Position numbers: made by a program
In this document: positions 1 through 6,000 of the stretch, piece after piece
How the letters are laid out: the number at the start of each line of letters is the position of its first letter
Numbering within the stretch: position 1 is the first letter of the stretch
NCBI RefSeq assembly: GCF_057098645.1
Contig: NZ_CM169472.1
Strand: one strand, 5' to 3'
DNA length: 64,000 bases

Positions 1-3000
1 AGCAAGCTATACCATTTAGTGGTAAAACCCTGCCAGTTGATGCCAAAGCGCGAGCTGTTAAAGGAGTTCACAATCAAAATAATGATTGGGATATACAGGT
101 ACGCGTAGATAGCGGTCATAAAACCGCCGCGAAGCAGTCGACCGATCATTCGAGTTCCACCTTCTTATTCATAAGGCGGGACACTTTCAGGATTTTGAAT
201 TTATTCAATTTTTTCCTTTCTCCAAAATCTCTCCAAAACGTTTCCCCAAAACTAGGCCACGCATTTTACAACACTTTTTCCTGAGATGGTGACGGATATT
301 CCATATGGTGTTTGTCAAATAACCAACTTAACCCATTCCTGACCTCGAGTATCGTTATAGCGATCGGTGGTTGCCTGGACTTTATGTCCTAGTAATGTTT
401 TTGTATCGATACCCTGTGCACGGTACAGCCGTTCTGATAGAGAGCGTTGTTCATGAAATGTTGGCGGAGTTTTTCCTGCTGGTGGAATTACCCCAGCCAG
501 ATCCCGTGCTTTGGCAAAGTAGTCGCTCAGGTTGTCTTTACTCATCGGCTTCGGTTGTTTCTGGTGCCGACTATGGATTAGATATGGACTTAATATTCTG
601 TCTCGGCACCCATCAATAACTTCTTTTAACGTTATCCCAATGGCATCACAGCGTAGTGTAAGCGGTAACGCCAGACGCATTCCGGTTTTTCCCTGGGTGA
701 TATGCAAGTGTTCGTTCCACACATCTGAAAAACGCATGTGGCAAATGTCATCACGGCGCTGACCAGTAACAATCGCAAGAAGCATTGCGTTACGGATAAA
801 GTGTTTTTCAGGCGTTGCGTTGTAAATTTTTTGCCAGTCTTCCAGGGTGAGCCTGGCTCTAGTTACTTTAGGGATCGGTTTACGGGTAGCCTCCGGAGGA
901 TTCCATCCAGGAGGAACTTCCCCTGCATGCTGTGCTTCTTTATAAATATCAACCCATAATCCACGATTTACTCTCGCTGTGCTGACCATGTCTTTATCCA
1001 GCCACTCATCCAGTATTAATGCAAAGTCTCTTACTTCCAGTTCTTTCAATGGGTGGTTTCCCAGACGGGAAACCAGGTATGCAGCCATTCGGGCTTTTTC
1101 TTTGTGAGTTGTAGCTGCAATATCTCCATTTTTCAGTCGCGTGTCCTGTATTTTCAGATATCGATCAACCCATGCCTTTAATCTGATACCCCGACGCTTT
1201 GTTGCTGACGGACTTTCATCAATTTTGCGCATGAAATATTCAGCCTCTGCTGCAGCTATTCGCTGATTGGCTGTGGAAGCGATTTTTTCTGCCTTACCTT
1301 TGTCTGTTCCGAGCCCGTGAAATTTTCCAGTCACAGGGTTTTTATACTGGTAGTAAACTCTGCCAGTTCTGCGATCAAATTTTTCGTAAAGTCCGGCTAC
1401 GTCAGTGCTGTTTTTTCGTGGCCTCGGTGACATGAGTTAAAATCTCCTTCAGTGCATCATCATCGCCAGTATGAATTTCCGGCGCAATTCCTGTTTCACC
1501 AGGTCCAACAAATACTGCTCGGCGATCTATCAGCCAACGCCCACGAATTTTTTGTGGTCTTGGAACGATGTATCCTAGTTTTCCGTATTTCACCAGGGTA
1601 GTGTTTGTTATTGGGAGACTGAACCGTTTTGGCTTCCACTCATCGAGCGTTATCAGGTACTGTTCGCTCATGGCTATCACTCCGGAACGCGCCAGTTGCA
1701 GAATACCAACGACAACTGGCGACGGTTGAACATTAAAAATCAGCCTGACTCGGGATCAGTTTTTGCCAGATAACTGAAACGTATTTTGCCTGATAACGGG
1801 CGTCATCAAGTGCATTATGGCGCTCACCTTCGAATGGAATAGCCGTTCTGGCATCGAAGTCTATGGCTTTCCCCAGCTCAACGATTGTGCGTACATCGCG
1901 ATCGTTGTAGTAACGCCACGGGCAGGGGATCCCCTGCCGTTCGTATGAACGGCGCAAAATCGTGTTGTCGAAGTTGGCTCCATTTCCCCAGACCTGAACA
2001 AAAAATTCACCGGAGTTTTCGTCGATAAATTCCCGCAATTGTAACAGTGCATCATCTAACGGGATTTCATCGGTCATAATGGCAGATTGCGCTTCGCGTG
2101 ATTGCTTAAGCCACCATTTAATGGTGTCCCGATCAATGACTCCGCCAGCAGTTTCCAGATCGATAGTCTTACTAAATTCCGGTCCCATATCTCCGGTTTG
2201 CGGATCGAAAAATATTGCACCTATTGAGATGATCGGGGCATCAGGATTTTTTCCCATGGTTTCAAGGTCGATCATTAGATGGTCACACGTCCTGCTGGTG
2301 GATGTGATTTCTTGATGACCGTTCACCTTAATTGAGTGATCTGCCGTCTCGCCAGTTTCATTATCGCTATCGTGATGCTGATTGCCGCCAGTGTTCTCCT
2401 TGTGTGGATGTTCAGCGCCTTCCATTTTCTCCGGATCATCTTCCTGAACTTCAACCTGATACTCTTCATCGAATGTTTCCTGGTATGTTGCGTCGCCCAT
2501 CACCGCGCCACAATCAGGGCAGTTGCCGCCGCCGGTCTGACCGCAGGCGGTGCAGGCTTTTTCCACTTCCTGTTGCGCCACTGGTTCAGGCTGTTTCGTT
2601 TCTGGCTCGTTTTGTAACGCATTTGGGCTGTTTTGTTCCGCTTTTTGGTAGTTCCGTTCCGATTCATGCTGGTTCTGGTTTACAGAATCGCGGGTCTGGA
2701 TCCCCTTAACCCATTTCGGATCATTCGGGTCGCTAATCCCTGCAACAAATTCTCCGCGAGAGGCAGCAAGCAACTTATCGGCGTCAGGCTGGCTGATATT
2801 GGCTGCCTGCATAATTTTGTTTACTTCGTCAGCGGTAACTTTTACCGGCTCTGGTTGTGCGGTCGTGTCAGATGCACCAGTATTTTGTTGTGAACCTGAG
2901 TATGTACTGTTTTTGCGGGCGAAATATTCTTCTTTCGTGATTTCAGTAGCCCCGGCAGCCAGTGCCTTATCCAGACCAGAAAGTTTGTTTGCGCGACCGT

Positions 3001-6000
3001 ATTTTTCGCCATCCTTGTCGGTGAAGAGGAAGTAGAACGGCCCCTCACGCTCTACAGATGGTTCGACTTCCACTTTGCATTCGGTTTTTTCGTTGTCCGG
3101 AATTGCCGTTTCCACTGCATCAGTTTCTGGTACTGGCGACGAGAGAGTATCAGTTGCGCTCTGATTTGTTCCTTCATCTTCAAACACGCCCTTTGTAGTC
3201 AGGTATTCAGTAATGTATTTGTTCAGTGCCACAGGGTCTTTGTGAATGTCGATCGGACGTTCACGGACAAGGCCAAAAATAGTCTGGCGGTCGTAGCGAA
3301 GGGCATCAGGCTGTTTGCGCATTGATGCCGAGATACGCTTCCAGTCTTCGCGGTCGTTGTCGATAACTTCATTTTTTGCCCAGCGATGGATGCTGCCGTC
3401 AATGTTTCCGGCATCCACATCACCAGGCCAGAGAGCGTAGGCCAGTTCGTCATCCAGTGTTTTCCATGTCTGCTTGTATTCGCGATGAATGGCAGCAATG
3501 ACCGGGCTGATTTTTCCTGTTGAATTTTCAGTGTGCTGTTGATTGGTTCTGGCGCGGGCGAGATCAACAACAGACGTGTATTTTCCGGTTTCTTTGCGTT
3601 CACCTTCGCGACGTTTTTTCCAGATGCGCATCTCTGCCTGAATTTCGGGCCATTTGGCACCAGGCTTACATTTATGCTTAACCCACCCGATGGCATGCAG
3701 CTTAAGCTCCGGATACATGGCGTTAACTTCTGGCATTTTCATCAACGCTTCAACGATATGTCCGTCGAATGTTGCCATGTCTTCCTGCAACAATTCCTGT
3801 GCGCTAATAACCATATCAACGGTGATGTTTTCACATGTGTCGAACTTAACCATGACAGCGTTCTGTACTTCAGGGGCCAGCTTGTCAAAAGTGACGTTCA
3901 TCGGATCTGATTCAGTCTCAACCGGAACAAAGGAAGCAGACTCCTCATCCCAGCGGTTTTCCTGCATATATTCAGCATCCCATGAATCGAGGGCAGGGCG
4001 GGGTATGCCAGGTTTATCCTCGCAGATAATAAATTTATAAGCGCAGTCCTGAGCAGCCGGATAATGTTCCAGGAATTGCCAGTGAAATTTTGCTCGAGCA
4101 CGGCGTTCGTCGCCAGCTTCAATAGCTGTGGCTACAGCCACAGCGCCTTCTTCCCTTGTTGCCAGTTCGTCAGGAATGGCGGCGCAAATAAAGACTTTAC
4201 TCATTTTGTTTTAACCTCATGACAGATTTAAGGATGAACAAATCCCTGCCATTGCTGGCATATAAGAATGAAACCGGATATTTATTACGGAACTGTTTTA
4301 AAGACCTGCCGGGATTTCGATATTATCCTAGTGAATAACTTTATCGACCGGGTAACAGTTACCGGGAATTTTCTGTTCGGTTGCTGCAGTCATACACTCC
4401 TGCATTGTCCTGTGAACACTGACTGCAATATCAACTGGCTCTCCGGAAACAAGAAAAACTGTCAGAACAAGCGCAAATGCTGAATTCATTGTGCACATCC
4501 TTTTGGCATCAGACGTAAACGAGCCAGCATTGAAACAATGCATATTTTATTTAATAGCTCCCGTTCTTGTTTTCTCTTGTTAATGGCATCTTCAGTAAAT
4601 ACAGGGTTACTGATAGTGACACCAATTTCAAAACAACCTTCAGACGTATTAACGTTTGGTAATAACGTTTCCATTATCTCGTCCTCAACAATGAATTTTT
4701 AGTAATTGCTCCACAGTCATATTTTTAATTGCGCTCCGGTTTACAAGAGTCCAGCCTTGTTTCTCCAGATAAAACTGGAAGGTATCCAGGGTGCAGACCA
4801 TTGCGCCGTCCGGAACGGTTTCAGTGAATTTGATATTGCCGTGTTCGTCGAGACGGATAACCAGGGTACGTCCGTCCCCGTGAATCATTTTGTCGGGAGA
4901 CGGGGCGTTATTCTGGCGCAGTTCTTTCTCCATGCGATCGAACTCAGCGATGTAGGCTTCTTTAAATGCAGCGGCTTTTTTGCCGGTGAAGCCCATCACC
5001 AGGAAAACGAAGCCGTTTTTGGTGATTTGGTACATTGGGAGTTTGCGACCGGTTGAGTCGGTATATTCGCTCGACACAAAATTGTGCTCAGTGAATTTTG
5101 CTGAACAGTCCAGATTGCGAATTTTATCCAACACTCGTTCGTGGCGTTTACCAAAGAACTCAGCGATCGCAATAGACGTAGTGACAGCGCGTCCATTTTC
5201 GATGGTTACGTCAGGGTGAGAAAGGGTATGGATAGTAGCCATGATGGCAGCCTCGATAGTCAGTTTAAATAACTCACCACCAAGGCTTTCCACGACCATA
5301 AGGGTGGTGAGACGTACAGGGGTGGAAATACCGGTGACTACCGAAACCGGCCAGCCTTTCGGCTGCCCTGCACGCCCCACCATAATCTGAATGTGGCTGT
5401 GCATTACGCATAAAAAAACCGCATGAGCGCGGTTATGCGCAGTAGTCATCATCGGGTTTCCACGCCCGGCACCCGCTTTATGAGGTGCAGGTGCACTATA
5501 ATTCCACCCGTTCTGGTTTTCAATAGCTACATTCAACATTTTCTCTTACCCTTCATCACCGAAGTGAACTTTGTTGATGCAGTGCCTGGTGCCTCCAGGT
5601 GACGTTAACCAGTTAACAATTAACGCCGGATACAGAGAATCCAACCATAACACTGTTTTTGGTTTTAACTGTTCCGCGTGCGCTTAGCCGCATTCACCGC
5701 ATCACAAAATTCACTTTAAAAAGGGCGGCAGAGCAGTCACGGAGTAAAACTGATACCGCCAAACGTCACCAGAAAATTGATAACAGAGGGCGTTGCAGCG
5801 GGGTTGTCACTTAAGCGTATGGTCAACCTGACAACCCGGTGTCCTCAACGGGGGAAGGAATAACCCCGCCATACTTACCGCCGCGCCATTTCGCGGATTG
5901 CCACAACCGGAAGCGCACGGTCGACGAAAATTTAACGACAGGCTATCTATGAACCAGCTACCTCGCCGTGCGCTTTCGCGTTATGGTCTGACTTTTCAGG

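Follow-up and report, generated by a model that had tools for sequence, protein, structure and literature searches.

The subject of this analysis is an exonuclease gene in a 64,000-nucleotide stretch of NCBI RefSeq assembly GCF_057098645.1, contig NZ_CM169472.1 (hereafter the window, meaning the whole stretch), which carries a lambdoid prophage. Judged from its sequence, the 823-amino-acid (aa) product of this gene is a RecE-family scaffold in which the 5'-3' PD-(D/E)XK nuclease has been replaced by a 3'-5' nuclease resembling phage T4 DexA and its Escherichia coli homologue EcD. This conclusion is drawn because the scaffold aligns with RecE, the similarity ends before the nuclease, and a DEDDh domain follows. 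The family is catalogued but functionally uncharacterised, and the protein is best described as a RecE-family variant with a nuclease of opposite polarity. As to its role, we tentatively favour DNA-end processing or another recombination-linked function, while giving this somewhat less than even odds of being correct.

An earlier note on this DNA had read positions 1733-4204 as encoding 823 aa, the last 180 or so being of the DnaQ/RNase T type, and both points held. The open reading frame (ORF) is complete, starts with ATG and lies on the minus strand. Its product has a single strong Pfam-A domain, the Rv2179c-like family PF16473 (aa 642-813, E-value 5.2e-67, model positions 2-177 of 177), together with a weak RNase_T match at aa 644-807. 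Nor are the exonuclease motifs disrupted, a possibility that the earlier note had raised. When aa 626-823 were aligned with T4 DexA, an EcD-like protein of 189 aa described below and four diverged relatives, the catalytic set D645, E647, D746, H796 and D801 was invariant; the DxE of Exo I, the D of Exo II and the H-x4-D of Exo III are all present, and these residues are unchanged in DEDDh relatives down to 56% identity. The protein belongs to the DEDDh (DnaQ-like) superfamily and to PF16473, and DEDDh domains have 3'-5' polarity. An internal start at Met644, where EcD starts, would give a free nuclease domain; we looked for one and found no convincing ribosome-binding site. A literature search on Rv2179c/PF16473 and ydfE found no functional study.

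The N-terminal 600 or so aa, in which the earlier note recognised nothing, turn out to have relatives in YdfE and in the central part of RecE. PHROG 2082 (labelled 'exonuclease', 823 positions) matches the protein end to end, so the full-length similarity that the earlier note had considered does exist, and it leads to a family that is catalogued rather than characterised. The first 255 aa are 98% identical to ydfE of the Qin prophage in strain K-12, where the gene is interrupted by IS2E, and the window gene is therefore an intact ydfE. In addition, PF27430 and PF27432, which a second tool names YdfE_N and YdfE_C, are recorded on a database protein (P0002) that is 99% identical to the window protein. 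By ydfE homology and these recorded families, the protein can be assigned to the YdfE family.

The NCBIfam model for RecE/exodeoxyribonuclease VIII (NF007259) matches aa 246-625 over profile positions 271-602 of 877, with a score of 283 bits against a curated cut-off of 1269, and the protein as a whole thus falls outside RecE as that model delimits it. In BLASTP against K-12 RecE, aa 262-625 align with RecE 278-591, and from about aa 470 to 625 the two are almost identical, cysteine cluster and acidic tail included. The likeness extends to DNA, where codons 475-623 are 77% identical to recE codons 455-589; it stops just upstream of the start of either nuclease domain. Nothing in the 823-aa protein aligns with RecE 600-866, the PD-(D/E)XK nuclease.

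We modelled aa 1-470 with AlphaFold2, using 43 homologous segments as input, and obtained a mean predicted local distance difference test score (pLDDT) of 85. The model contains folded blocks at about aa 1-210, 245-340 and 388-432, joined by disordered linkers at aa 222-235, 347-382 and 439-453, which is why the scaffold, as modelled, is built like beads on a string. It belongs to a narrow family of enterobacterial prophages, and no enzymatic fold is recognisable in it. Further along the chain, a 16-residue motif, RGEFVxGISDPNDPKW, is almost unchanged in 33 of 151 sequences scanned, irrespective of the C-terminal domain; the scanned set consisted of the matches listed from the homologue search plus K-12 RecE. 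The acidic low-complexity stretch and the CxxC...CxxC cluster that had been noticed by eye are both real: the cysteines are C551/C554 and C562/C565, and Asp and Glu make up 33% of aa 561-620. A second acidic stretch (28-30%) covers aa 341-400. RecE has a matching cysteine cluster at aa 517-531.

A methyltransferase offers a side view of this cluster. In the prophage that carries the EcD-like gene (L015), a DNA methyltransferase gene at 5190-6167 on the minus strand is separated from the EcD-like gene by one small ORF. The C-terminal 30 or so aa of its product match PHROG 20376 at positions 256-285, which by position is the CxxC...CxxC region; going by profile position, this would suggest that the cluster is a mobile mini-module.

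Module-by-module BLAST of long representatives showed that front parts and nucleases occur in four combinations. The window gene joins a YdfE-type front to the DEDDh domain, and P0128 joins the same domain to a RecE-type front that is 100% identical to K-12 RecE 1-277. A YdfE-type front is combined with a RecE-type nuclease in P0132, P0240 and P0202, and the remaining combination is that of a RecE-type front with the RecE nuclease. Clustering of the C-terminal 300 residues yielded two further groups beyond the DEDDh and RecE-type nucleases. One of them (14 representatives) looked by eye like an annealing protein. A Foldseek search of the PDB with an AlphaFold2 model of this group (pLDDT 83) returned the N-terminal domain of human Rad52 as the top three matches (E-values 1e-6 to 5e-6, probability 1.00). 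The Rad52 fold is seen by structure comparison only: a sequence-profile search of the PDB was empty for this group, and Pfam searches of diverse relatives gave Exonuc_VIII and DUF3799 in some of them and only marginal matches to Rad52. The proteins of this group on the YdfE scaffold (about 680-790 aa; L033, 5001-7337, and L040, 5001-7226) bear the PHROG label 'exonuclease'. From the structural model, such proteins may be mis-annotated recombinases, possibly the nuclease-less 'RecE-2' proteins reported in a 2025 survey of 325 lambdoid phages (PMC12315714). A fourth variant, P0126 (L038, 5001-7109; 702 aa, phrog_26058), lies in the same slot before xis-int, and the C-terminal 260 or so aa of its group have no Pfam, PHROG-function or PDB match.

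All scaffold variants occupy the recombination slot adjoining xis-int. The RecE-nuclease version has a RecT-like gene next downstream. At both Rad52-like loci examined, Gp157/MuGam-like genes follow the scaffold gene, and at one of them a lambda-Gam-like gene also precedes it. For the DEDDh version, xis-int comes immediately next and an annealing protein is missing in each of three independent contexts (the window, L035 and L036). Such neighbourhoods are in keeping with a role of the scaffold family in recombination. The earlier note had guessed at recombination or anti-restriction; the former gains indirect support from the slot by xis-int, the RecE scaffold and the sister fusions, and nothing supports the latter.

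A junction as sharp as the one in this gene, within a highly mosaic family that includes many truncated copies (K-12 ydfE among them), might also have arisen when a recE-like gene recombined illegitimately with a DEDDh gene, leaving a functionless product that was simply carried along. Selection and prevalence make such an inert mosaic scarcely credible. In comparison with the orthologues in phages Tritos and PhiR42_1 (about 95% DNA identity), the ratio of non-synonymous to synonymous substitution rates (dN/dS) is 0.26 overall, 0.27 for aa 1-470 and 0.09 for the nuclease domain; all copies compared are intact, those in complete phage genomes included, and the catalytic residues remain invariant across the diverged relatives mentioned above. 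By megablast, the DEDDh-coding segment is present in 4052 of 5426 complete E. coli genomes (75%), with at most 7 copies per genome, compared with 1730 genomes (32%) for the RecE nuclease-coding segment, and one protein cluster at 90% identity holds 23,183 sequences. Because of the low dN/dS, the intact copies, the wide presence in E. coli genomes and the large cluster, we conclude that the gene is not a decaying remnant; its DEDDh form is under purifying selection.

The best match of the nuclease domain among solved structures is PDB 8KEL, a 227-residue exodeoxyribonuclease (E-value 1.5e-6), which we take to be the T4 DexA of PMC12153337 because its chain length fits and because the companion entry 8KEN carries the substitutions S87A/D90A. 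An E. coli homologue of DexA, EcD ('HREX'), is reported in the same paper to digest T4 DNA and to protect cells (Kang et al. 2025, PMC12153337). With the EcD forward primer given in the supplement of that paper, we recovered an EcD-like protein of 189 aa from viral contigs. It starts with MIDTET, has Ala78 as the paper states, and the 3' end of its gene equals the reverse primer save one base. This protein is 37% identical to aa 644-815 of the window protein (E-value 3e-36), and by sequence comparison EcD is the closest characterised relative of the nuclease domain.

It is thus conceivable that the gene serves anti-phage defence or exclusion by the prophage, degrading incoming T-even DNA modified with 5-hydroxymethylcytosine (5hmC) in the manner of EcD. 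The activity of EcD on T4 DNA and its protection of cells, the identity to the EcD-like protein, and the very common, multi-copy occurrence of the gene would suit this explanation, which we nevertheless regard as unlikely. The authors of the DexA study propose that W152 and D169 are tied to 5hmC recognition and D90 to a tetramer contact (PMC12153337). In our alignment the corresponding residues are Y766, K779 and D718 in the window protein, and W, E and A in the EcD-like protein. The window protein has therefore not kept the 5hmC residues and has kept the Asp whose loss defines the EcD state, which places it outside HREX/EcD as far as these residues, which are proposals rather than an established definition, can delimit that group. 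The gene also lies in a repressed early-left operon and not in a slot expressed in the lysogen (PMC11430063), and defence would leave the 640-aa RecE-type scaffold and its sister fusions to recombination domains unexplained. The EcD-like gene is itself found in a prophage early region near an integrase. Searched with the PADLOC models of anti-phage defence, the 823-aa protein gave a sole match of 23 residues (E-value 0.024).

RNA could be the substrate instead, with phage or host transcripts, or the small RNAs of the same operon, as possible targets. The best-matching Pfam family takes its name from the Rv2179c exoribonuclease, and many copies of the gene carry the NCBI product name '3'-5' exoribonuclease'; such names, however, are transferred from the family title. 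The scaffold is common only to DNA recombination proteins, and the nearest characterised relatives of the nuclease domain, EcD and DexA, are exonucleases that act on DNA (PMC12153337), which we count in favour of DNA-end processing. We therefore consider an exoribonuclease very unlikely.

The order dicF-dicB-ydfD-exonuclease-xis-int seen in the window (Table 1) recurs in the complete genomes of phages Tritos and PhiR42_1. In K-12, transcription of dicB, ydfD and ydfE can start from the dicB promoter, which DicA represses (PMC11430063). Because the order in the window matches that of Qin, in which DicA represses the dicB promoter, we infer by analogy that the exonuclease gene would be early lytic and silent in the lysogen. 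Consensus scans for promoters gave counts at or below shuffle expectation and those for terminators about 1.5 standard deviations above it; neither placed a site directly upstream of the exonuclease gene.

As had been claimed, no Exo/Bet/Gam or RecE/RecT module accompanies the gene. Searches by tblastn with lambda Exo, Bet, Gam and Ral, two RecT proteins, the RecE nuclease domain and the Rad52-like domain found nothing significant in the 64 kb, and PHROG scans of the ORFs around the exonuclease gene found neither Exo/Bet/Gam nor RecE/RecT. A two-component recombinase of the lambda Red/RecET type, that is a 5'-3' exonuclease with an annealing protein, was found neither in the window nor in phage Tritos. 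The window contains 8 Chi octamers, all on the plus strand, against 2.2 +/- 1.5 expected; five of them fall within about 10 kb, to the left of the lysis/cos end. In phage Tritos the count is 11 where 1.5 are expected, and 9 of these are on the plus strand. Given this excess in both, the window prophage fits a class described in the 2025 survey, that of lambdoid phages which have no Rec module, are rich in Chi and show improved growth when RecBCD is present (PMC12315714). One of the octamers is antisense to the exonuclease gene and falls between its RecE-like segment and its DEDDh domain. We considered Chi as the cause of the domain junction and rejected it: there is a Chi at the junction here and one inside the Tritos orthologue, and none in the DEDDh-type gene of L035 or in K-12 recE.

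These observations bear on another explanation, a counter-defence or end-conditioning function directed at the host: removal of 3' overhangs, or degradation of DNA-based signals, might change the behaviour of host nucleases or defences. Ends might be blunted so that RecBCD loads and reaches the phage Chi sites, or 3'-ended single-stranded DNA that triggers defence might be destroyed. In line with this, there is no Gam, Abc2 or annealing protein, yet Chi is enriched in the orientation that is active for RecBCD coming from the right cos end, and Gam-like genes occur with Rad52-like scaffold variants and not with DEDDh variants. This support is purely circumstantial, and with 1 Chi per 8 kb the window does not exceed the average density of the E. 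coli chromosome; we hold counter-defence of this kind to be a rather poor prospect.

Our preferred explanation remains DNA-end processing linked to recombination, and it can be put as follows. The gene encodes an early protein of modular build from a lambdoid prophage of the Qin/DicB type, whose small folded modules and disordered acidic linkers form a RecE-type scaffold comprising the YdfE_N/YdfE_C region, the mini-domain, the RGEFVxGISDPNDPKW motif and the zinc-ribbon-like cluster. On this scaffold a DexA/EcD-like DEDDh domain is borne where RecE bears its PD-(D/E)XK 5'-3' nuclease. The protein would be made once the DicA-controlled early-left (dicB) operon is de-repressed, and during lytic growth it would attack DNA ends as a metal-dependent 3'-5' exodeoxyribonuclease, the scaffold presumably bringing the nuclease to the partner or substrate that the N-terminal part of RecE engages. 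Its role would then be end processing in recombination-dependent phage growth. Since the phage lacks an annealing protein or RecBCD inhibitor of its own and correctly oriented Chi is enriched, it presumably depends on RecBCD and RecA of the host, together with Chi. What is observed of the gene and its family is the architecture, a catalytic site without defects, purifying selection, the genomic slot beside xis-int, where the leftward early operon ends, and the sister fusions.

Several points weigh against a recombination role. Nucleases of 3'-5' polarity strip the 3' tails used by RecA and annealing proteins, and they usually inhibit recombination. The 2025 survey likewise speaks of such inhibition; it also notes that some lambdoid phages have genes for DnaQ-like 3'-5' nucleases, frequently adjoining int as in the window; some belong to Rec modules, while the sporadic int-proximal ones are explicitly not counted as members of Rec modules (PMC12315714). 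The RecE scaffold is itself without known function (PMC11611040), so that sharing it defines no mechanism, and specificity for DNA or RNA is not readable from the sequence.

A wider proposal, and in our judgement quite a long shot, is that the YdfE/RecE scaffold is a general delivery platform among enterobacterial prophages, with exchangeable heads for DNA transactions (nucleases of 5'-3' or of 3'-5' polarity, or a Rad52-like annealing domain), of which the DEDDh head is the commonest in E. coli. The DEDDh version would then supply an unrecognised recombination or end-conditioning function to phages classed as lacking a Rec module; one possibility is that trimming of 3' ends allows host RecBCD to load and to undergo conversion at the phage Chi sites. 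Neither the RecE-scaffold/DEDDh chimera nor the scaffold/Rad52 fusion is described in surveys such as PMC12315714, in so far as their text was available.

Table 1. Exonuclease gene, its parts and the neighbouring features, in window coordinates
Feature	Position	Strand	Remarks
cI/DicA-like repressor	6854-7261		
Small YdfA/B/C-like ORFs			between repressor and DicF, reading leftward
DicF small RNA	5723-5774	-	Rfam, 76.7 bits against a gathering score of 48
C4 antisense RNA	5300-5387	-	Rfam; with isrK, just upstream of and overlapping the Rha/Ant-like ORF
isrK	5412-5488	-	Rfam; see C4 antisense RNA
Rha/anti-repressor (Ant)-like ORF	4685-5539	-	284 aa
DicB-like ORF	4486-4674		same operon as DicF, downstream
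YdfD-like ORF	4328-4543		same operon as DicF, downstream
Exonuclease gene, complete ORF	1733-4204	-	ATG start, 823 aa; intact form of K-12 ydfE
First folded block, aa 1-210	3575-4204	-	alpha/beta sub-domain (about 1-100) and helical sub-domain (about 105-210); portion left in K-12 YdfE
Helical block, aa 245-340	3185-3472	-	protein-level likeness to RecE (about 278-340) starts here
Beta-hairpin/helix mini-domain, aa 388-432	2909-3043	-	GPFYF...GRANK...EITKEEY; in many relatives, not in K-12 RecE
Segment common with K-12 recE, codons 475-623	2336-2782	-	similar to recE codons 455-589
Linear motif RGEFVAGISDPNDPKW, aa 483-498	2711-2758	-	conserved across C-terminal domain types
Four-cysteine zinc-ribbon-like cluster, aa 551-565	2510-2554	-	CTAC-x7-CPDC
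Acidic low-complexity linker, aa 566-640	2285-2509	-	Chi octamer on the opposite strand at 2294-2301
DEDDh 3'-5' exonuclease domain (Rv2179c-like/DexA-like), aa 642-813	1766-2281	-	Pfam, structure match, alignment
xis	1402-1680		directly after the exonuclease gene
int	315-1433		after xis
Chi octamers	478, 2294, 13277, 16527, 16729, 21219, 21796, 58501	+	

The rest of the window prophage shows signs of transposition and a cargo region. An insertion sequence of the IS21 family (7741-10159), made up of istA (7741-9387, NCBIfam IS21 transposase) and an IstB/DnaC-like ORF (9161-10159), sits between a cro-like gene (7338-7565) and a cII-like gene (10188-10745), where it has probably put the early-right operon out of action. 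Another transposase ORF (phrog_157; 15167-16057, minus strand) lies between the replication/nin region and a 616-aa phrog_143 ORF. The right end of the prophage (47698-58044) holds low-GC cargo (30-35% GC). Positions 47698-50046 encode a type III effector of the HECT-type E3 ubiquitin-ligase kind (1116 bits), an ORF of 1133 aa at 50637-54038 is similar to the CNF1 family at its C-terminus, and EspK lies on the minus strand (56683-58044). The host gene pepT (60599-61867) comes after this region.

The RecE/RecT pair is a workhorse of recombineering. According to a 2023 review, the N-terminal 560 or so residues of RecE are without known function, and full-length RecE improves linear-linear recombineering (PMC11611040). 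The same scaffold is joined here to a nuclease that has the opposite polarity, and in other loci to a Rad52-like annealing domain, and its reuse with different heads points to a scaffold function that is independent of the catalytic head. If the scaffold does act as a delivery platform, this would give a handle on the N-terminal two-thirds of RecE, the part that boosts linear-linear recombineering. The DEDDh version, which some three quarters of complete E. coli genomes carry, frequently as multiple copies, and which is more than twice as frequent as the RecE nuclease domain, is often mis-annotated as 'exonuclease VIII' or 'exoribonuclease'; knowledge of its role would correct a widespread annotation. 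It would also clarify the growth and recombination of lambdoid phages without a recognisable Rec module, including prophages that, like the one in the window, carry type III effector genes. The architecture is informative on the RecE N-terminal region and on such phages, and contains nothing outside known kinds.

Among known systems, YdfE (b1577, a pseudogene of the Qin prophage in K-12) shares with the window gene the order dicF-dicB-ydfD-ydfE. The K-12 gene is broken by IS2E after codon 255 and has lost everything from the RecE-like segment through the nuclease, whereas the window gene is complete. T4 DexA has in common with the window protein the DEDDh/Rv2179c-like fold family and all five catalytic residues, but it is only about 25% identical and is a stand-alone 227-aa protein of a lytic phage. 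EcD is likewise a stand-alone domain, with W, an acidic residue and, at the D90 position, Ala, where the window protein has Y, K and D. Finally, RecE (exodeoxyribonuclease VIII of the Rac prophage in K-12) shares the RGEFVxGISDPNDPKW motif, the CxxC-x7-CxxC cluster and the acidic tail, and its gene occupies the same early-left operon slot, between kil-type genes and xis-int. It differs in its first 260 or so aa, which are RecE-type rather than YdfE-type, and in the presence of an adjoining recT, where the window gene has none and is followed directly by xis. Its PD-(D/E)XK 5'-3' nuclease (about residues 600-866) stands where the window protein carries a DEDDh 3'-5' domain.

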